The notes under the pieces are model-generated. The model had not been told where the DNA came from. It did no database searches and saw only the letters and a list, made by a program, of their open reading frames with translations. Made by a program: the position numbers and the translations under genes. Positions 27,509 through 43,924 of a stretch of DNA of 64,000 bases are shown one piece after another (position 1 is the stretch's first letter; each line of letters starts with the position of its first letter). Source of the DNA: Acidimicrobiia bacterium (GTDB taxonomy: Bacteria; Actinomycetota; Acidimicrobiia; Spongiisociales; Spongiisociaceae); assembly GCA_003229305.1 (NCBI GenBank), contig QIDH01000055.1:3240-67239 (forward strand). The letters are read 5' to 3'.

Positions 27509-29842
27509 TTGACCAGGTTCGTGGCAGGTCCGGGCTGGGTTTCAGCAACGAATTCGGGCCGACGCCTGACTCTCGTCATCCGCCAGTCGCCCGATTCGGG
27601 TGGTCCGCTTTTGGCTGAGACGAGACGGCCCCCTCGCACACTGATCTTGGCATTGGCTGCGGCCGCAGCCATTGCAGTCATCTTCCTCACCCGATCCATT
27701 TCTGGCACAGACGAGAGCGATGCCGGGCAGATCCTGGCCGCCGGCGCCGAACAGGCCGACCCGGCTTTGCTTGATGGTGGATGGGTCCAGATCGACCTCC
27801 CAGGTACGGCGCAGTTGCGGAACGTTTGGGATGTTGAGGGGATTCTCTACGCGGCTGGCCGAATCCCTCAGACAGGCGAAGCTGTCCTGTGGAGGAGTGG
27901 GGAGGGTCGCGATTGGCTCCAGATAGGTGCGTCTGACGGTTCGTTCGCCGGCTCGTCCATCAACTCGATAGTTGTGTTCGCCGGCGAGGTTCTCGCCCTT
28001 GGTACGAGGGCGCTGGAGGCATCGGAAGGGTCTCAGATGATCGTGCCGGCCGTTTGGCGCTCGGCAACGGGAGAGGAATTCACGCTGTCGCAAGACCCAT
28101 TGTCGGTCGACGATGTCACGGCGAGTTCCGGAGGAGGCTTCCTTGGTGCGGCCGTCGCAGAAGGCCGGTTGGTGGTTGTGGGCTGGTCGGGTGGTTCAGG
28201 CACCCTGGACGGTGAGGGGGCAGCAAGGGGAGCGGTATGGATATCGGAAGACGGGTCGTCCTTTATCTCCGTCGAGGATGAGCATTCCTTCTCCTCGACG
28301 GGGACTGTTATCAGAGACGTGGTCCGTGTCGGAGATTCCGGGCTGATAGCAGTTGGGGGGAGTGGGGGCTCAGCCGTCGTCTGGCAATCGGCCAACGGCG
28401 ACGCCTGGGAAATCGTGTCCGAGGGCAGCGGGCCGGCCGACGGTGGTGGCGCTTGGTCCGCCGACCTGCTGGTCAGTGGACCGAACGGCGTCATTTCGTA
28501 TGGCGTATTCCGGCCGGACGCGGCCGAGGCCCTAGGAGACGGGTCCCTTTATTGGTCAGGCTCGGGAGAATGGGAGAGAGTCGATGGAGCCGTCTTCGGC
28601 GGAGGCATCCCTAGCGGTGTCGATGCGGACGCGGTCGGTTATGTGGCTGTCGGCGAACAGGACATCGGGGACGGTGAGTCTTCTGGAAGCGCATGGGTGT
28701 CTCGCGATGGGGCTACTTGGAACCAGTTGACAGTCGAGGGCCTTTCGGGCGGCGTCTCGAGTGCCAACGCCGTGGCGGTATCTGACGACGGAGTGGCGAT
28801 CGTCGGTTCGGCCTATGCGCAACCGGCCATCTGGTTCCGTCCGGCGGGCGATCTCGATCAGAACCAGCCGGTGGCAGCCGCCGGGCCTTTGGCCCCGCCC
28901 GCCTGGGCGACGGTGTTTCAAGAACAGACGGCTTCGGATGCCAGTCCCGTTTCGATATCTTCCGCCGGCGGACGGTTCTACGGGTTCGCGGCGGAGAGGG
29001 TTATTTGGACCTCGGTCGATGGGAGGGAATGGTCGCCAGCCCTTTTCGATGACGTTGGCCTGGGTGACGCCTCTGCCATCATTTCGGTCGTCGAGGCCGG
29101 GGACGTTTCCGTGGCCATAGGCGAGGCTGACGGAAGCGGGCTGTGGGTCTCTACCGACGGCAATCAGTGGGGGAGGCCGGCATCGAAACTCCCTTGTTGC
29201 GCTGAGGCTCTCTTCACGGATGGCTCCGGTTTCACGGCCCTCTTTGCCGCTGGAGACGCCTGGGTCACGGCCGGATCTGCTGACGGCCTGATTTGGGCAG
29301 TCGTTGACGAGAACTTCGACTTTCCCCTCGACGATCTCTGGGAGAGCGCCGCGCTAGGCCCGTCATGGTTCGTTTGGGGCTCAGAAGAGGGCGGCGAGGA
29401 TATTCGGATGTGGGAATCTGTCGACGGAGGTGGCTGGGTCGAGGCCAAGGGTCCTGACGGAGACTTTGGCGCCGTGGCGTGGGAAGGAGTTTGGCAGTTC
29501 CAGGGCCAGATCGTGGTGGCAGGCACGGTCGGTGAGCGCACCGTCGTGTTCACGACGGTCGATGGGCTGACTTGGACGCCGGTACCGCTCCCCGATATCG
29601 ATGTCACTCCCACGGTCAGGGACGCGGCCCCGGTTCGAGAGGGGTTGGCTTTGTTGCTGGTTCTGGACGGCAGGCGCCTGGCCGTGTCACAGGCGGTCGG
29701 AGGACGATTGGAGGAACTCGTGCTCTTGTCACCTAGCGACGGCTTCGGTGGCCTGCGGGCGGTGTTGGTGCCAGGAGCAGACGCGTTACGAACGGTCGGT
29801 CCCGACCACGGACGGATGACCGTCTGGGAGTGGATCCCCTAG
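27509..29842 (+). CDS. Membrane-anchored beta-propeller protein with about 9 degenerate BNR/Asp-box repeats (start uncertain)
   Basis: An N-terminal TM segment (LILALAAAAAIAVIFL) is followed by recurring W-x-S-x-D-G-x-x-W/F units: WRSGEGRDW, WISEDGSSF, WQSANGDAW, WVSRDGATW, WTSVDGREW, WVSTDGNQW, WESVDGGGW, TTVDGLTW. Confidence 0.7.
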   Translation: MTRFVAGPGWVSATNSGRRLTLVIRQSPDSGGPLLAETRRPPRTLILALAAAAAIAVIFLTRSISGTDESDAGQILAAGAEQADPALLDGGWVQIDLPGTAQLRNVWDVEGILYAAGRIPQTGEAVLWRSGEGRDWLQIGASDGSFAGSSINSIVVFAGEVLALGTRALEASEGSQMIVPAVWRSATGEEFTLSQDPLSVDDVTASSGGGFLGAAVAEGRLVVVGWSGGSGTLDGEGAARGAVWISEDGSSFISVEDEHSFSSTGTVIRDVVRVGDSGLIAVGGSGGSAVVWQSANGDAWEIVSEGSGPADGGGAWSADLLVSGPNGVISYGVFRPDAAEALGDGSLYWSGSGEWERVDGAVFGGGIPSGVDADAVGYVAVGEQDIGDGESSGSAWVSRDGATWNQLTVEGLSGGVSSANAVAVSDDGVAIVGSAYAQPAIWFRPAGDLDQNQPVAAAGPLAPPAWATVFQEQTASDASPVSISSAGGRFYGFAAERVIWTSVDGREWSPALFDDVGLGDASAIISVVEAGDVSVAIGEADGSGLWVSTDGNQWGRPASKLPCCAEALFTDGSGFTALFAAGDAWVTAGSADGLIWAVVDENFDFPLDDLWESAALGPSWFVWGSEEGGEDIRMWESVDGGGWVEAKGPDGDFGAVAWEGVWQFQGQIVVAGTVGERTVVFTTVDGLTWTPVPLPDIDVTPTVRDAAPVREGLALLLVLDGRRLAVSQAVGGRLEELVLLSPSDGFGGLRAVLVPGADALRTVGPDHGRMTVWEWIP

Positions 29843-35900: not shown

Positions 35901-36671
35901 TCAAAGCCCGGTGACGATGTGCAAGATTTCGTCGTGTCGCGTCCCGTTGGACGCGACCGCATTCCCGGACCCGTACTCGGCCTGGCCTGAGAAATCGGTG
36001 AACACCCCACCCGCCTCCTGGATGATGATGCTCACCGGTGCCACGTCCCAAACGAAAACTATTGGGTCGATCATGACCTCGATTCGACCGGTTGCCACCA
36101 AGAAGTAGCCGTATCCATCACCCCAAGTCCTGAGCCGCATCGGACTTGCATGCAAGCGGTCGAGCATATCTTTTGGCAGGTATCCGTATCCGCTTGCCGA
36201 CAGGACGAACTCGCTCAGTTCGGATCTGGTCGACACTTCGGTCTTGGTTCCGTTGTGGAAGCAGCCGAGGCCCCTGCCCGCGAATACGGTCTCACCCAAT
36301 GCCGGCAAGTGAATTGCCCCGGCAGCAACCCCATCCTGGTCCTCGACCGCAACCAGAGTGGAGTACAGGGGCACGCCTCTGACAAAGGCTTGCGTACCGT
36401 CGATTGGATCGATGATCCAGCGGCGCCTGCCAGAACCCTCGGTCGCGCCCTCCTCCTCGCCGACGATTCCGTCGCCTGGATATCGATCAGCGATCGCCTT
36501 TCTGATCGTCTGCTCGGCGGTTCGATCTGCGACGGTCACCGGTGTGCCGTCAGCCTTCACGACAACATCGAGGTCCGGGTTCTGAAACCATTCGAGCGTG
36601 GCATCGCCAGCGGTCCTGGCCATGGCCACGACGTCTTCCAGGAGTTGTTCTGCGGATGGATCCTTGGACAT
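35901..36671 (-). CDS. hisN: IMPase-family phosphatase, HisN-type histidinol-phosphatase likely
   Basis: ATG at 36671 (MSKDPSAEQLL...). Motifs: PVTVADR, GEEEG, WIIDPIDGT, WDVAP. The C-terminal NAVASNGTRHDEIL resembles actinobacterial HisN. Confidence 0.7.
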   Translation of the reverse strand: MSKDPSAEQLLEDVVAMARTAGDATLEWFQNPDLDVVVKADGTPVTVADRTAEQTIRKAIADRYPGDGIVGEEEGATEGSGRRRWIIDPIDGTQAFVRGVPLYSTLVAVEDQDGVAAGAIHLPALGETVFAGRGLGCFHNGTKTEVSTRSELSEFVLSASGYGYLPKDMLDRLHASPMRLRTWGDGYGYFLVATGRIEVMIDPIVFVWDVAPVSIIIQEAGGVFTDFSGQAEYGSGNAVASNGTRHDEILHIVTGL

Positions 36672-36934
36672 TTTGCAATCGTACCGACGGTCGATGTTGT
36701 CCTGTGCCTCATGCCTGCCAGGCGACCTTTTGAGAAAGTTTTTGTCGCGGTAAACCCGAATGGGTGTCAGGAGCGATATGTGGGTATGTAGTCGAGCAAT
36801 CCCCTTGCTCGGTGTTTGTGGGGGAATGGTTCGGTCCCCTGGCCGGAACCATTCAGGTCGAAATTCGTGCCGGCCGGCATTGCCTCTCGTCCGGTCGGCA
36901 CCATCGACCCACCTGACCCACGGAGGTTCCGCCT

Positions 36935-36984
36935 CCGAAACGCCGGTGTATTCCGTCCTCGGGCGGAGGACACCGGCGTTTCGG
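36935..36984 (+). terminator. Long hairpin CCGAAACGCCGGTGT-(20 nt)-ACACCGGCGTTTCGG followed by TTTTT on the + strand
   Basis: 15-bp perfect stem with a T5 tract only in the + orientation. It sits 37 nt downstream of the minus-strand cimA stop, so it could also act as a U-less terminator for cimA. Confidence 0.5.
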
Positions 36985-37020
36985 TTTTTCTCCTTCGTCG
37001 GAGAACGCAGCGCGGGCTGT

Positions 37021-38592
37021 CTATCTGCTTTCCGACCGGAGCAGGCCGACGACAATGCCATCGGCCAGCGCCTGCCATGACGCCTCGATGATGTTCTCGT
37101 GCACCCCGATGGTGCCCCAAGACCCGACATGGTCCGCTGTCTCGAGCAGCACACGCACTCTGGCTCCCGTCGATTCTCCAGAGTCGAGCACCCTGACTCG
37201 ATAGTCGATCAGTCTGAGGTCGGCCACTTGGGGGTACTCGATCTTCAACGCCGTTCGCAGCGCTTGATCGAGAGCATGGACCGGGCCGACGCCCTCTCCT
37301 GTGGTCACGACCCGAGTCCCGTCCACCAGCACCTTGACCGTAGCTTCCGCTACGACCTCTTCGTTCCTGCGTCGCTCGGTGTAGACCCTGAACGACTCGA
37401 GTTCGAAAAAGTCTTGCTCCCAGCCCCCTGCAGATCTGACCAGCAGTTCAAATGTGCCGTCCGCAGTCTCGAAGTGATGACCCCGGTGTTCGAGGTCTTT
37501 GATCTGTCCGATGATGACCTTGGCCTGGTCGTCGCTCAGGCTCAGGCCCAGCTCGGAGGCCTTCGATTGAACCGAGGCCTTTCCGGCCAATTCGGAAACG
37601 ACCATTCGGGTTTCGTTTCCCACCTCCTTGGGATCCTGGTGCTCATAGGCATCTCGACGTCTGGCCAATGCCGAGGTGTGGAGCCCAGCCTTGTGGGTGA
37701 ACGCAGACGTCCCGATATAGGGCCGATGGGGATCGAGGGAGATATTCACCACTTCGGCGATGTGGTGGGCGATCGGGGAGAGGCTGGCCAGCCGCTCCTC
37801 ACTGAGTACAGGGATGCCCATCTTCAGCACCAGGTCGGGCAAAATTGTCGAAAAGTCTGCGTTGCCGGTCCGCTCCCCGTATCCGTTGATGCAGCCCTGG
37901 ACCTGTTTGACGCCTAGTTCAACCGACGTGAGAGTCGAGGCTACAGCGCAACCGACATCGTTGTGGAAGTGCACCCCGATTTGCGCGTCGGGGAGAAAAT
38001 CTTGGACGGCTTGGACCGTTACCGCCACCTCTCCAGGAAGCTTGCCCCCGTTGGTATCGCAAAGAACGAGGCGCTCCGCTCCCGCTTCAAACGCGGCCTT
38101 CAGAACTCTGAGGGCGTAGGCCGGATTGGCGGTGAACCCGTCGAAGAAGTGCTCGGCGTCATAGAACACCTTCCGCCCCTTGCCCTGGAGATAGTCCACC
38201 GATTCGGCGACCATCGCCACGCCCTCGTCCAGGTCGACCCGCAGGGCCTCACGCACGTGGTAGTCCCATGCCTTGCCGACGATGCAGATGACCTCGGTCT
38301 CTGCGTCCAGCAATGCGCTGAGCTGTGCATCGTCTGCCACGTTTCCGTTTGGACGCCTTGTCGAACCGAAAGCCGTCAGGGTGGCATTCGAGAACGACAG
38401 CTCGGTTTTGGCACGCTCGAAAAACTCGTTGTCCTTCGGGTTGGCTCCCGGCCAACCGCCTTCGATGTAGCCGACTCCAAGATCGTCCAACAGTCTGGCA
38501 ACCCGTAGTTTGTCCCCGACCGTGAGGGAGATGCCCTCCTGCTGCGATCCGTCTCTCAATGTCGTGTCGTAGATCTCGAGTTCGGGTTTCAT
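37021..38592 (-). CDS. cimA: (R)-citramalate synthase / 2-isopropylmalate synthase family (CimA-type, 523 aa)
   Basis: ATG at 38592 preceded by GGAGAG. IYDTTLRDGSQQEGISLTVGDKLRVARLLDDLGVGYIEGGWPGANPKD is typical of the long CimA clade, and a C-terminal LeuA-dimer regulatory domain is present. Confidence 0.85.
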   Translation of the reverse strand: MKPELEIYDTTLRDGSQQEGISLTVGDKLRVARLLDDLGVGYIEGGWPGANPKDNEFFERAKTELSFSNATLTAFGSTRRPNGNVADDAQLSALLDAETEVICIVGKAWDYHVREALRVDLDEGVAMVAESVDYLQGKGRKVFYDAEHFFDGFTANPAYALRVLKAAFEAGAERLVLCDTNGGKLPGEVAVTVQAVQDFLPDAQIGVHFHNDVGCAVASTLTSVELGVKQVQGCINGYGERTGNADFSTILPDLVLKMGIPVLSEERLASLSPIAHHIAEVVNISLDPHRPYIGTSAFTHKAGLHTSALARRRDAYEHQDPKEVGNETRMVVSELAGKASVQSKASELGLSLSDDQAKVIIGQIKDLEHRGHHFETADGTFELLVRSAGGWEQDFFELESFRVYTERRRNEEVVAEATVKVLVDGTRVVTTGEGVGPVHALDQALRTALKIEYPQVADLRLIDYRVRVLDSGESTGARVRVLLETADHVGSWGTIGVHENIIEASWQALADGIVVGLLRSESR

Positions 38593-38619
38593 GTTCTCTC
38601 CGTGGCGGGGCTGGGCAGC

Positions 38620-38644
38620 AAAAAACCCCTTGCTGGGCAAGGGG
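38620..38644 (-). terminator. Intrinsic terminator inside the cimA leader (CCCCUUGC-CCA-GCAAGGGG-UUUUUU on the minus strand)
   Basis: 8-bp GC-rich stem plus a U6 tract, ending 27 nt upstream of the cimA ATG. Confidence 0.8.
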
Positions 38645-38675
38645 TTCGGGGCGCATACGGTTGTTGCGTATGCGC

Positions 38676-38711
38676 CTAGGTGATGATGACGATCATTTCG
38701 ACAACAGTCAT
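38676..38711 (-). CDS. Leader peptide MTVVEMIVIIT (11 aa) of the cimA attenuator
   Basis: ATG ACT GTT GTC GAA ATG ATC GTC ATC ATC ACC TAG read on the minus strand. 7 of 11 codons are Ile/Val. It lies between the promoter and the terminator. Confidence 0.7.
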   Translation of the reverse strand: MTVVEMIVIIT

Positions 38712-38720
38712 AGGGGTTCG

Positions 38721-38749
38721 AGTATGACCTGAGCCGCCTCGACCGTCAA
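38721..38749 (-). promoter_or_regulatory. Sigma-A type promoter TTGACG-17 nt-CATACT for the cimA leader transcript
   Basis: The -35 element is at 38749-38744 and the -10 element at 38726-38721. The -10 element ends 9 nt before the leader ATG, implying a nearly leaderless leader-peptide mRNA. Confidence 0.6.
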
Positions 38750-38813
38750 CATTTTCGCGCTCGCCGGCGATTATCAACGCCAGGCGGCCGTCCACTCGCT
38801 ACCGTCGTAGACC

Positions 38814-39887
38814 ATGTTCGCTCAATCTCTGGCAGGTGCCTGCGGCTCCGATCCCGGAATCATCTGTGAGTTGGTCTTCAACCTGACCGGTAGTGAGTCG
38901 GTCGCCTCGCTATCTGAGTCTCTGACCAAGCCTCTCAGGGTCGCGGTGATCCTCATAGTTGCCTGGGTTCTGGCGAGACTGGTCCGCAGGGCCATCCACC
39001 GGACGACGGAGAGTTGGGTCACAGGCCAAACGACCAGGTTGGAGGCGGCCAAGGCGACGCCACAAGAGGGTGGCCGAATCGAATCTGCCAGACGGCGGAT
39101 TTCGCAGACGGCCATCAAGGCGGAAAGAGGGCAGCAGCGGGCGAGGACGCTGAGCGACGTGCTGGAGTCGACCGCTTCGCTCGTCATCTATTCGATTGCT
39201 GGGATGATCGCCCTCTCAGAGTTCAATGTGAACCTTGGTCCCCTGATCGCCGGCGCAGGAATCGTCGGGGTGGCAGTCGGATTTGGGGCACAGAGTCTGG
39301 TCAAGGACTTTCTGTCTGGCATCTTCATGTTGCTGGAGGATCAGTACGGCATCGGAGACATCGTCGATGTGGGCGATGCTTCGGGTGTCGTCGAAGAGGT
39401 CAGGCTGAGGACCACTCAGATCCGCGATGTGGAGGGAACGCTCTGGCACATCCCCAACGGCGAAATTCGCAGGGTCGCCAACAAGTCCCAGGATTGGGCG
39501 AGGGCTGTGATGGACATCGAGGTCGCATACGACACCGACCTCCGCCACGCAATGGCGACCATCAAGGCTGTGGCGGTCGATGTCTGGAACGATCACCTCG
39601 AGAATGCGACGATCCTCGAAGAACCGGAGATATGGGGAGTCCAAGAGTTCGGGGCTTCTGCCATTGTCATTCGCCTGGTGGTCAAGGTAGAGCCGGCCGA
39701 ACAGTGGTCGACTGCCAGGGAGATTCGCAAGCGCCTCAAGTGGGCTTTCGACGAGGAAGGCATCGAAATCCCCTTTCCCCAGCAGACTGTTTGGTTGCAC
39801 AACGAGCCAGGGGAGACCGAATCAGGAGCTAAGCCACCTCCCGCCGAGAAGTTCCTGCCGAGGGGCGGCGTGGAAGGCGAGATGTAG
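38814..39887 (+). CDS. Mechanosensitive ion channel (MscS family)
   Basis: GFGAQSLVKDFLSGIFMLLEDQYGIGDIVDVGD... is the MscS TM3/beta-domain signature. 357 aa. Confidence 0.9.
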   Translation: MFAQSLAGACGSDPGIICELVFNLTGSESVASLSESLTKPLRVAVILIVAWVLARLVRRAIHRTTESWVTGQTTRLEAAKATPQEGGRIESARRRISQTAIKAERGQQRARTLSDVLESTASLVIYSIAGMIALSEFNVNLGPLIAGAGIVGVAVGFGAQSLVKDFLSGIFMLLEDQYGIGDIVDVGDASGVVEEVRLRTTQIRDVEGTLWHIPNGEIRRVANKSQDWARAVMDIEVAYDTDLRHAMATIKAVAVDVWNDHLENATILEEPEIWGVQEFGASAIVIRLVVKVEPAEQWSTAREIRKRLKWAFDEEGIEIPFPQQTVWLHNEPGETESGAKPPPAEKFLPRGGVEGEM

Positions 39888-41937: not shown

Positions 41938-42915
41938 ATGACCGAAAACCGACTCTTCTCAGGCATCCAGCCAACGGGCGAGATCCACCTCGGCAACTAC
42001 ATCGGAGCGCTTCGCAACTGGGTCTCGATGCAGGAGGAGTATGAAGCCATCTACTGCGTCGTCGATCTGCACGCGTTGACGGCCCCCCAAGGACCTGCCG
42101 AGCTTCGGGAAGCGACCATCCGCACTGCCAAGGCGCTCCTGGCAGTCGGTATCGACCCGGATCGGTCGCTGCTCTACGTCCAGAGCCACGTCCCTCAACA
42201 TGCAGAGTTGGCCTGGATTCTCGGGACTCTTGCCTCGATGGGTCATCTGAGCCGGATGATCCAGTACAAAGAGAAATCTGAAAAGGGCGGCCAGAACCTA
42301 GGCCTGTTCGCCTACCCGGTGCTCCAGGCGGCCGACATCCTCATTCATCGTGTGCACGTCGTTCCGGTCGGAGATGATCAATCCCAGCACCTCGAATTGA
42401 CCCGCGAGTTGGCAGAGCGCTTCAACACTCGGTTCGGAGAGATTTTCCCCGTGCCGGCGACGATCACCCCGAAAATCGGGGCGAGAGTGATGTCTCTCAA
42501 GGATCCGACGGCCAAAATGTCGAAGTCGGATCCTGACCCCAAGAGCCGGATCGATATCACCGATTCGGCGGACCTGATACGAAAGAAGATCAGATCGGCG
42601 GTCACTGACTCCGGGATCGGAGTGCGATACGACACCGAAGACAAGCCGGGGATCTCGAATCTGTTGGACATCACGGCTGCGATGTCTGGACGAGCGATCG
42701 ATGAGCTTGTCGCCGAGTACGCCGACCTGCAGTACGGATCGTTCAAAGATGCCGTAGCTGACGCCGTCATAGACGGGCTGGAGCCGTTCCGTTCGGCGTA
42801 TTCTGCGATGACCGACGACTATGTGCGCGACGTAATGGCCTCGAGCGCAGAGCGGGCCATCGACTCCGCCGCCGCCAGTTTGGCTGGGATCCGCGAGGCA
42901 GTCGGCCTCAGCTGA
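41938..42915 (+). CDS. trpS: Tryptophan--tRNA ligase
   Basis: GIQPTGEIHLGNYIGA (HIGH-type) and KMSKS motifs. 325 aa. ATG preceded by AGGAGA. Confidence 0.95.
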   Translation: MTENRLFSGIQPTGEIHLGNYIGALRNWVSMQEEYEAIYCVVDLHALTAPQGPAELREATIRTAKALLAVGIDPDRSLLYVQSHVPQHAELAWILGTLASMGHLSRMIQYKEKSEKGGQNLGLFAYPVLQAADILIHRVHVVPVGDDQSQHLELTRELAERFNTRFGEIFPVPATITPKIGARVMSLKDPTAKMSKSDPDPKSRIDITDSADLIRKKIRSAVTDSGIGVRYDTEDKPGISNLLDITAAMSGRAIDELVAEYADLQYGSFKDAVADAVIDGLEPFRSAYSAMTDDYVRDVMASSAERAIDSAAASLAGIREAVGLS

Positions 42916-43720
42916 TCAGGTCCACTTCGGATGCAAAAAGAAGCGCCATCACCTGGATGAGGTTGAAACTGCTGTGGAGCAAGATCGGCGCAGACAGCGA
43001 TTTGGTCTTCAGTCTGACAAGGGCCAGGACCAACCCCACTCCGAACAGGACGATCAGGGGAGGGATGACGAGCCGGACCGCCTCTACAGCTCCGCCCTCG
43101 ACGGATGGGTTGAACCCGAGGAGGTGGGGGAGTGAAAAAGCGACCGAAGAGGCGACGACCGCCACAGTGGTGGAATTTCGCTGAAGGATCGTGTCGTACA
43201 GGAGGCCCCTGAACAGCAGCTCCTCGATGATCGGCCCGAATATCCCGATGCCTGCCACGATCGCGAACGCGGTGATACCTGCCCCCGATCCTGCCACCAT
43301 GTCCACGAGTGCCTGAGCGTTTTCGTCTCCCGCTCCGAACAACGGTTTCAGGACGAGAGTGAGGCCCGCGGACCCGGCCACGAGCGGTGCGCCGGCCAAG
43401 ACCCACGGCCAATCCCTTGGGTTCACTTCGAATGAGAAATCGCCGGCGAAGTTGCCGGTTCCATGTCGGTGACTGAGCCAACGCAGGACCAGGAAGTTGG
43501 CGAGGAGTTGGACCGGCAACAAGAACCAGAAGGTCCATTCGTTCGAGATCTCGACATTCACGCTCCCGGATTCGGCGTCGAGGCTCGCCCCGCCGACGAT
43601 GATGAGCACCAAGACTGACGCCACCAGACTGGCGCCGACGCCTGCCCCGAACACTGCAAGGCTGTGCCAATATCGCCACTCCGGCCTGGCAGCGCTGCCT
43701 TCGATATCTACCCGATCCAT
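42908..43720 (-). CDS. CPBP family intramembrane glutamic endopeptidase (CAAX protease/Abi-like)
   Basis: EELLFRGLLY motif 1 and FSLPHL / HSSFN motifs. Polytopic, 270 aa. Confidence 0.85.
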   Translation of the reverse strand: MDRVDIEGSAARPEWRYWHSLAVFGAGVGASLVASVLVLIIVGGASLDAESGSVNVEISNEWTFWFLLPVQLLANFLVLRWLSHRHGTGNFAGDFSFEVNPRDWPWVLAGAPLVAGSAGLTLVLKPLFGAGDENAQALVDMVAGSGAGITAFAIVAGIGIFGPIIEELLFRGLLYDTILQRNSTTVAVVASSVAFSLPHLLGFNPSVEGGAVEAVRLVIPPLIVLFGVGLVLALVRLKTKSLSAPILLHSSFNLIQVMALLFASEVDLIS

Positions 43721-43924
43721 AGACGCAGCAGAGTAGCGAGCCGGTTTCGGCCTGCGGTCGGAAGCCCGCCGGTTTCGGCCTGGCGGCCGAAACCCTAAGA
43801 GAGTTTGCGCCGTTCGCTGCGCCCACTAACCGCAAACTCTCGGGGTGTAGGCCGATCGACCGAGCTCGATCGCTGTGGCTGTGGCTGGTAGCGTTGCCAG
43901 GCGCTGGTTCTTCGGAGGGTTTGG

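Follow-up and report, generated by a model that had tools for sequence, protein, structure and literature searches.

A candidate leader-peptide attenuator of the citramalate synthase gene, and the family of leaders to which it belongs

Introduction

How might a bacterium that makes isoleucine by way of citramalate adjust the route to the supply of its end product? The question is raised by a 64,000-nucleotide stretch of Acidimicrobiia DNA (contig QIDH01000055.1, positions 3,240 to 67,239; hereafter the window), in which cimA, the gene for (R)-citramalate synthase, is preceded by a promoter-like sequence, a very short open reading frame (the mini-ORF) rich in isoleucine (Ile) and valine (Val) codons, a hairpin (A) and an intrinsic terminator (T). 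A first-pass annotation of the sequence took this for a leader-peptide attenuator of the ilv/leu type. Having folded the leader and compared its sequence with its counterparts in related genomes, we conclude that it is not a chance arrangement; the evidence that goes beyond chance is comparative. Another 45 loci retain the mini-ORF with its Ile/Val block, the two hairpins and the U-tract, which strongly supports the leader-peptide attenuator reading, and it seems probable that the leader is a ribosome-mediated transcription attenuator that senses charged Ile- and Val-tRNA and controls cimA. Of the ilv/leu-type proposal, the leader peptide, the hairpin and the terminator have stood, but a mutually exclusive antiterminator was sought and not found, and it is this that makes the switching step the more difficult part of the problem.

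Results

The leader of cimA

The leader and the gene that it precedes are laid out as follows, with all features on the minus strand.

38744..38749, minus strand: -35-like hexamer TTGACG; TTGAC(N) stands at this distance in 29 of the 46 family members described below
38721..38726, minus strand: -10-like hexamer CATACT, separated from the -35 by a 17-nucleotide (nt) spacer and ending 9 nt before the ATG
38676..38711, minus strand: putative leader mini-ORF MTVVEMIVIIT, 11 codons and TAG; homologous ORFs of 10-19 codons in 46 of 46 members
38682..38693, minus strand: candidate sensor block ATC GTC ATC ATC (I-V-I-I), positions -5 to -2 before the stop, matching the family Ile/Val pattern
38650..38676, minus strand: hairpin A, 10 base pairs (bp), GGCGCAUACG/CGUAUGCGCC, loop CAACAAC, -16.3 kcal/mol
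38645..38649, minus strand: A-T spacer CCGAA, of which 2 nt are left unpaired after GAA pairs with the U-tract
38620..38644, minus strand: terminator T, CCCCUUGC-CCA-GCAAGGGG (38644-38626) and U6 (38625-38620), -16.9 kcal/mol
38596..38601, minus strand: cimA Shine-Dalgarno sequence GGAGAG
37021..38592, minus strand: cimA, (R)-citramalate synthase, 523 amino acids (aa), TIGR00977, ATG at 38592; the putative regulated gene

Promoter, mini-ORF, hairpin, terminator, GGAGAG and the cimA ATG all lie where the first-pass annotation had placed them on this strand. It credited the peptide with seven Ile/Val codons in eleven; the actual number is six, three Val and three Ile (ATG ACT GTT GTC GAA ATG ATC GTC ATC ATC ACC TAG). 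The core of hairpin A, GCGCAUACG/CGUAUGCGC, spans 38675-38651, and a tenth base pair joins G38676, the last base of the TAG, to C38650. The stem of T is GC-rich and of 8-11 bp, being extendable to 11 bp through GAA:UUU. The minimum free energy (MFE) structure of the leader consists of these two hairpins (-45.1 kcal/mol; z = -4.9 relative to dinucleotide shuffles) and leaves the GGAGAG of cimA largely unpaired. No Shine-Dalgarno sequence is present between the -10-like hexamer and the ATG of the mini-ORF in the window, and the spacing of the two suggests that the mini-ORF mRNA would be leaderless or would carry a leader of at most 3 nt. The identical arrangement, CATACT-9 nt-ATG, occurs in two related loci (L001 and L082), 9 nt being the commonest spacing in the family.

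Taken alone, the individual signals are unremarkable: single-sequence consensus scans gave two promoter-like sites where 1.0±1.0 were expected and two terminator-like sites where 2.5±1.7 were expected, neither number being significant by itself. Comparison with Rfam returned nothing relevant at E<=10 in 38300-39100 and no match at gathering scores in the whole window. The identity of the gene is not in doubt; as the first-pass annotation held, it is CimA and not LeuA (TIGR00977, 659 bits against a cutoff of 450, with all LeuA models far below their own cutoffs), and a leader with Ile and Val and almost no leucine codons fits the isoleucine pathway. The gene upstream of the leader in the window is a divergent MscS-type channel. 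We considered whether T might terminate an upstream gene, and this can be ruled out in the window, L001 and L002, in each of which the upstream gene is divergent.

A family of leaders ahead of isoleucine-pathway genes

Relatives were collected with CimA as the query, from one genome per species and from metagenomes, which gave 160 loci. Even the best of them reach no more than 63-70% identity, and the closest come almost all from Acidimicrobiia metagenome-assembled genomes (MAGs); on that evidence, the lineage of the window is a sparsely sampled, Acidimicrobiia-like one. Conservation of the leader was already decisive at 55-70% CimA identity. A complete leader stands directly upstream of cimA in four other loci, L001, L002, L081 and L082, where the predicted peptides are MTSPTTTIIIT, MHAPTSIGIT, MASATTIIIIR and MARTTTTIIIIE, respectively, each ended by a stop codon. 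All four have the same promoter spacing, a hairpin A that starts from the stop codon and a terminator after it; L083 is a fifth cimA-proximal example, truncated. Elsewhere in the Acidimicrobiia, cimA mostly follows ilvE or leuB directly, and a scan of the whole locus found the same type of element 1-2 kb farther upstream, ahead of leuB(-ilvE)-cimA. The operon genes were checked in L011 (LeuB, 485 bits against a cutoff of 393; IlvE, 425 against 279).

Two arrangements can be told apart in these loci. At L011:944-1012 and in about 40 other loci the leader precedes a leuB-ilvE-cimA or leuB-cimA operon, while in the window lineage, L001, L002, L081 and L082 cimA stands alone and has a leader of its own. 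Operon-type leaders share an almost invariant terminator sequence (ACCGUCCAC...GUGGGCGG), from which that of the cimA-proximal type differs.

A covariance model (R1) built from 25 sequences recovered 46 members, 21 of them outside the training set. Within the window it gave a single match over the full length of the model (68 bits, E 2e-14; the E-values of a model built within the analysis are rough), and no second copy of the leader was found ahead of other window genes, even with filters off. The 45 further members all lie in Acidimicrobiia loci, four complete ones next to cimA and the rest ahead of leuB(-ilvE)-cimA, so that the element was seen solely ahead of isoleucine-pathway genes. For L001, L011, L039, L050 and L081, Rfam offered no relevant match, T-boxes, riboswitches and leaders included.

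An alignment made with MAFFT and read with RNAalifold recovered just three pairs of hairpin A, owing to misplaced gaps, and we used the model-guided alignment instead. There, 88.6% of the cells in both stems pair, compared with 37-52% in slid controls; 15 of the 17 pairs have changed on both sides, and none of 500 shuffles reaches the observed values. Changes on both sides affect all eight modelled pairs of hairpin A across the family and seven of the nine pairs of T, in which 98% of cells pair. The members of the family are related by descent, and p-values from them overstate independence. The first-pass annotation had named conservation in relatives as the test that could refute its proposal; what we find there is stems that covary and codons that vary synonymously.

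Codon pattern and geometry

The mini-ORFs of the 46 members follow strict rules. Counting back from the stop codon, the combined share of Ile and Val is 76, 78, 85 and 98% at positions -5, -4, -3 and -2, falls to 4% at -1, and does not exceed 11% from -6 upstream; exactly one free codon separates the Ile/Val block from the stop. Position -2 is Ile in 45 of the 46, with ATT and ATC interchangeable, and Ile and Val replace one another at -5 to -3 by way of different codons, with -1 and the N-terminal parts varying freely. The reading frame is retained while the length of the peptide varies from 10 to 19 aa, and in 29 of the 46 members a TTGACN-17/18-NANNNT promoter lies 4-10 nt (mostly 9) before an ATG or GTG that has no Shine-Dalgarno sequence. 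The interchange of ATT and ATC, the Ile/Val block, the free codon after it and the fixed distance from promoter to start together argue that the mini-ORF is a coding sequence.

Codon choice within the mini-ORFs is also unlike that of the genes they precede. TAG is the stop in 41 of 46 mini-ORFs (89%) and in 15 of 46 cimA genes of the same loci (33%); ATT makes up 47% of the Ile codons in mini-ORFs and 9.7% in cimA (p = 5e-21), and GTA 36% and 3.8%, respectively, of the Val codons (p = 3e-14), both p-values being inflated by relatedness. GUA is a named regulatory codon in the ilvB leaders of Mycobacterium tuberculosis (PMC13236596) and Corynebacterium glutamicum (PMC11857589).

Hairpin A varies across the family from 7 to 13 bp and from -12 to -23 kcal/mol. 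Its position hardly varies: in each of the 46 members the stem begins no more than 2 nt to either side of the final stop-codon base, and in 29 it begins on that very base. Between A and T, every member leaves 0-6 nt unpaired. The window fits the family rule with I-V-I-I-T and a TAG stop, Thr at -1, hairpin A running from the G of TAG and a spacer of 2 nt. Reduced to geometry alone (an Ile codon, 5 nt, a perfect hairpin, at most 8 nt, then a hairpin with a T-run), the rule gave 46 matches in 968 kb searched on both strands, all of them family members or the six cimA leaders from Streptosporangiales described next; shuffled sequence gave none.

The peptides of the cimA-proximal leaders are rich in threonine before the Ile run (MTSPTTTIIIT, MARTTTTIIIIE, MASATTIIIIR) and recall ThrL of Escherichia coli. 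This hints at joint sensing of Thr and Ile by leaders that would control a pathway bypassing threonine.

Sister leaders in Streptosporangiales

Six cultured Streptosporangiales (among Nonomuraea, Streptosporangium fragile, Planotetraspora mira and Acrocarpospora corrugata) have a conserved cimA leader of their own, with the predicted peptide M..GLLII(G/S/R)RRAG and a stop (L050:2885-2963, L051:2885-2963, L052:2849-2927, L055:2845-2920, L056:2884-2962 and L058:2846-2924). There, the ORF runs through the 5' arm of a hairpin of 10-11 bp and stops at its loop, the terminator follows directly, and 5 nt once more separate the last Ile codon from the hairpin.

The search for an antiterminator

Folding the leader and searching it for mutually exclusive antiterminator pairings, as the first-pass annotation had suggested, did not bear out that part of its proposal: no structure competing with T was found by several approaches. 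When folding was constrained by a ribosome footprint at each codon in turn, T was kept in the MFE structure in all five cimA-proximal leaders, the window included. The 5' arm of T is essentially unpaired before the 3' arm has been made; in the window, the probability that it is paired is 0.02-0.04 with the ribosome at the Ile codons.

The natural candidate for an antiterminator is a pairing between the 3' arm of A and the 5' arm of T (A3':T5'). It does not covary in the family (the mean over shuffles is the same as the observed value, and 338 of the 500 score at least as high), and the segment from the loop of A to the loop of T folds no better than shuffled sequence (z from -0.7 to +1.4). Family-wide, the A3'xT5' duplex is weaker than its shuffled equivalent (-3.6 against -4.3 kcal/mol, z = +2.8), and in the window the pairing is worth just -0.9 kcal/mol. 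Complementarity is likewise depleted between the loop of A and the 3' arm of T, which would form a pseudoknot (z = +3.0), and between the tail of the mini-ORF and the downstream region (z = +5.0). The true stems reach z = -25 and -24 in the same duplex test, and an unbiased scan of alignment columns for conserved helices returned A and T only.

Other candidates were tried and rejected. Pairings of the 5' end of the mini-ORF with either arm of T, of the 5' arm of A with the 3' arm of T, of the mini-ORF tail with the 3' arm of A, and of the tail or the 5' arm of T with the downstream Shine-Dalgarno region were none of them above chance when compared with shuffles, and several were depleted. A downward extension of A into the spacer or T, as in C. 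glutamicum, finds the flanking bases unpaired in the window and in several members examined by eye. A starvation-induced frameshift into the +1 frame, which is open through the terminator, was set aside, since the GC content would lead one to expect such open frames and AUC-AUC is not slippery.

The 5' arm of T is pyrimidine-rich and resembles an anti-Shine-Dalgarno sequence (CCUCC/CCCUC), both in the window (38596-38644) and at the equivalent positions of L001, L081 and L082, and family-wide its complementarity to the downstream region slightly exceeds that of shuffled sequence (z = -2.1). This resemblance could have a secondary effect on the translation of read-through transcripts.

Ribosome reach

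How much of hairpin A a ribosome would disturb depends on how far it reaches downstream, and we compared three estimates, one of which, the entrance (helicase) estimate, comes from established structural and frameshifting work. With the last Ile codon in the A site, the first pair of A lies at +12 from the first base of the P-site codon. By the entrance estimate a stall at this codon (-2) leaves A intact; by the footprint estimates it invades 4-7 of 10 pairs. A stall at -5 is 17 nt short of A and one at -4 is 14 nt short; both leave it intact, the widest estimate having the second of them touch just the first base of A. With the ribosome at the stop codon, A is destroyed by all estimates of reach.

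Other features of the window

No other branched-chain amino acid (BCAA) genes lie within ±10 kb of cimA. Downstream of cimA, a mechanically called ORF at 35901-37154 (minus strand) overlaps the 3' end of cimA by 134 nt and has histidinol-phosphatase HisN (below the curated cutoff) and inositol-monophosphatase-type matches only from residue about 171 onward; its real start is probably much farther downstream, and it may be co-transcribed with cimA. Other neighbours in the window include a Ser/Thr kinase, a LysM cell-wall protein, GuaB3, GuaA and a CheA-like hybrid kinase, and the ORFs at 27509-29842 (plus strand, 777 aa) and 42819-43835 (minus strand, 338 aa) had no NCBIfam match at E<=1e-10. 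In another locus (L012:2830-3000) an ORF with a repetitive Asp/His/Glu-rich stretch (MSNDHDHDHDHEHEHEHEHEHEHE...GHGHTHGGAGHGHD) lies between ilvE and cimA; it could extend CimA at the N-terminus or else encode a small peptide of its own, of a metal-binding-like kind.

Discussion

A proposed mechanism

The family rules suggest how the leader might work. Transcription would start at the ATG of the mini-ORF or a few bases before it, and a ribosome would translate the mini-ORF while RNA polymerase makes hairpin A and then T. The I-V-I-I block would be followed by one free codon and then by the TAG, whose last base opens hairpin A. Delayed at any of the sensor codons, a ribosome would leave A folded, fraying the base of A at most when it waits at the last Ile; a ribosome that has passed the block would have to unzip A before stopping. 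With Ile or Val scarce, a folded A beside T would prevent termination and cimA would be on. With both plentiful, the mini-ORF would be completed, A unzipped and T free to act, and cimA would be off. The assignment of read-through to a folded A, and of its unzipping to ribosomes that have cleared the block, follows from the geometry of the sensor block: since Ile and Val are no less dominant at -4 and -5 than at -3, half of the block or more can only signal that A is intact. We regard this switching logic as tentative, with its chances somewhat short of even; hairpin A would be the element on which the ribosome acts.

If this is how the leader operates, the antagonism between A and T would not be an ordinary competition for base pairs, for the two share no nucleotides. 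Its basis might be steric, A lying 0-6 nt from the base of a hairpin that forms inside the exit channel of the polymerase; alternatively, the polymerase might bind hairpin A, in the manner of a put-like hold, or a stalled ribosome might dock at the junction of A and T. It is possible, though on balance doubtful, that the leader embodies a different switching principle, in which a folded hairpin adjoining a terminator blocks it without shared nucleotides and the ribosome does no more than unzip that hairpin after an Ile/Val checkpoint. Were it true, a non-pairing switch would explain why the last Ile codon, one further codon, the stop and the hairpin follow one another at a fixed distance, why A and T are only 0-6 nt apart, why Ile and Val codons at -4 and -5 are of use and why every competing pairing is depleted. 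Weak A3':T5' pairing, in particular, would be expected, because the freed 3' arm of A, lying beside T, must not trap T in the off state.

Several observations weigh against this proposal. As structures, A and T are fully compatible, and because T forms with the ribosome at every position, no state that we computed shows read-through. About half of the members have A-T spacers of 4-6 nt, possibly long enough to relax a purely steric block, and the sharp upstream limit of the Ile/Val block at -6 is not explained by a logic in which an intact A turns the gene on. The 9-nt gap from the -10 to the ATG implies that the putative mini-ORF would be translated from a leader of about 2-3 nt, and in the window the mini-ORF uses common codons only (ATC, GTC and GTT). 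We know of no close precedent for antagonism between a hairpin and a terminator that does not depend on pairing. Finally, mutation of the candidate regulatory codons in the Streptomyces coelicolor ilvB leader was without effect, according to the citing passage in PMC1262725, which indicates that leader-like ORFs of Actinomycetota do not always behave as predicted.

Alternative explanations

The most conventional alternative is a three-hairpin attenuator with A as its 1:2 protector: on stalling at the last Ile codon, a ribosome would cover the base of the 5' arm of A and so free the 3' arm of A to pair with the 5' arm of T as a 2:3 antiterminator, giving read-through, and with Ile plentiful the ribosome would finish and leave, A would re-form, T would form, and transcription would stop. 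Folding with a footprint reaching 12 nt past the first A-site base lends this some substance, since in about half of the operon-type members folded (L011, L005, L012, L016, L037 and L020 are examples) an A3':T5' hairpin of -6 to -9.5 kcal/mol appears once the A site reaches the last Ile codons; in such members the 3' arms of A and T are alike. In the A3':T5' register 68% of cells are pairable, against 32-55% when slid. The invariance of Ile at -2, where two of the three reach estimates have a stall invading 4-7 bp of A, also fits. We nevertheless consider the three-hairpin model unlikely. Beyond its lack of covariation, its unexceptional folding energy and a family-wide duplex weaker than shuffled, the pairing is absent from the window (where the probability that the 5' arm of T is paired is 0.04), from the L036 clade and from the Streptosporangiales. 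Since the 3' arm of A stays uncovered once the ribosome has reached the stop codon, the same antiterminator would form with Ile plentiful, and Ile/Val codons at -4 and -5 would bring about termination under starvation.

Control might instead be exerted wholly or partly on translation, a stalled ribosome altering pairing with the ribosome-binding site of cimA while the terminator is constitutive and leaky. Leaderless polycysteine small ORFs (sORFs) of mycobacteria are sensors that act on translation in this way, through pairing with the Shine-Dalgarno sequence (bioRxiv 10.1101/834739), and the slight complementarity of the 5' arm of T to the downstream region is in keeping with it; but the corresponding pairing of the mini-ORF tail is strongly depleted in the cimA family, the GGAGAG of cimA is mostly unpaired, and a conserved stem and U-tract between sensor and gene point to a transcriptional end point. 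We think this explanation highly improbable. It is also very unlikely that the leader senses no amino acid at all, the hairpins serving to end transcription constitutively or to stabilise the RNA, belonging to a small RNA gene, or being bound by a protein or a tRNA, and the mini-ORF being a motif at the level of RNA or DNA. In favour of such a reading, translation of the mini-ORF is predicted from sequence, the conserved base of A (GCGCA...UGCGC) could be a recognition site, and the S. coelicolor ilvB leader ORF lacked the expected effect in the passage of PMC1262725 cited above. It does not account for a pattern that behaves like codons (ATT or ATC at -2, Ile/Val swaps at -5 to -3, a free -1), for a frame kept across 10-19 aa that starts at a fixed distance from the promoter, for the enrichment of locally rare codons or for the confinement of the element to positions ahead of isoleucine-pathway genes, and no T-box, riboswitch or other Rfam match speaks for it. 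In our judgment, an attenuator that reads Ile and Val supply during translation of the mini-ORF would best accommodate these observations.

Relation to known attenuators

The classical leader-peptide attenuators are those of the enterobacteria, trpL, ilvL, thrL and hisL of E. coli. Like them, the cimA leader has end-product codons in its predicted peptide and a pause or protector hairpin followed by an intrinsic terminator, and the mixture of Thr and Ile in cimA-proximal peptides such as MTSPTTTIIIT and MARTTTTIIIIE is reminiscent of ThrL in particular. It differs from them in having no 2:3 antiterminator, in regulatory codons that lie outside the first hairpin and not in region 1, in a stop codon that abuts the hairpin, so that a terminating ribosome cannot cover region 2, and in a mini-ORF that has no Shine-Dalgarno sequence and is leaderless in type. 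Two other systems resemble the proposed switch in principle, with no similarity of sequence or structure claimed. In pyrBI and pyrE attenuation the bulk of a nearby ribosome suppresses termination without an RNA antiterminator, and in phage HK022 put, a folded hairpin in cis acts on the polymerase. In pyrBI and pyrE, however, the ribosome covers an arm of the terminator directly, whereas the cimA leader has a hairpin in between; put, for its part, consists of two specific stem-loops and acts processively.

Closer to hand are the BCAA attenuators of other Actinomycetota. The ilvB1 leader of M. tuberculosis is an upstream-ORF attenuator with an LVVI block and a GUA regulatory codon, the logic of which has been proposed and partly tested (PMC13236596). 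It shares with the cimA family its phylum, a short BCAA-rich ORF, a four-codon block with the GUA codon, and a Rho-independent terminator with a U-tract ahead of a BCAA gene; even the logic proposed for ilvB1NC is the same, in that an upstream hairpin forms on stalling and is masked when the ribosome is at the stop (PMC13236596). There, however, antiterminator and terminator are mutually exclusive, whereas A and T share no bases; the leader is 166 nt long with a conventional 5' region, whereas mini-ORFs of the cimA family begin 4-10 nt after the -10; and the target is ilvB, not cimA or leuB-ilvE-cimA (PMC13236596). In the three-hairpin model for ilvBNC of C. glutamicum, a GCC trinucleotide is common to the antiterminator and the terminator, which compete for it (PMC11857589). 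That leader is another actinobacterial BCAA attenuator in which the bases of the hairpins touch and GUA is a control codon, and the proposal that its first hairpin pauses the polymerase is a further likeness (PMC11857589); the cimA family differs in having no shared bases, a spacer of 0-6 nt and, by eye, neither stem extendable into the other.

Leaders of ilvB and leuA are known in Actinomycetota (PMC1262725), and eight leaderless leader peptides have been described in Streptomyces lividans, ilvL (MRTRILVLGKRVG) among them (PMC8079986). These Streptomyces and Corynebacterium mini-ORFs are of 12-29 aa, stand ahead of amino-acid genes and are often followed by hairpins and a U-stretch, and those of ilvB contain runs of Ile, Val and Leu (PMC8079986, PMC1262725). 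None is reported for cimA, and no sequence relationship to the cimA family was detectable with the tools used. In the actinobacterial ilvB leaders the ORF overlaps the terminator hairpin, whereas the cimA family has a separate hairpin between ORF and terminator. Full-text literature searches for a link between cimA or citramalate synthase and a leader peptide returned nothing relevant. In other words, the sensor principle is known; the target pathway, the lineage and the strict geometry are new.

Implications

Several actinobacterial elements that combine a leader peptide with a terminator, that of S. coelicolor ilvB for example, do not behave like the attenuators of E. coli, and the rules of the cimA family, together with the depletion of antiterminator pairings, make this puzzle testable. 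The six Streptosporangiales that carry sister leaders are organisms tractable for experiments of this kind. The covariance model may be used to annotate such leaders and to flag regulation of cimA, leuB and ilvE in metagenome-assembled genomes. The family itself, with 46 members in poorly studied and mostly uncultured Acidimicrobiia and six more in Streptosporangiales, obeys strict and measurable rules, and it provides, if the leaders act as we propose, the first evidence we have found that the citramalate route to isoleucine is under end-product control by a leader peptide.

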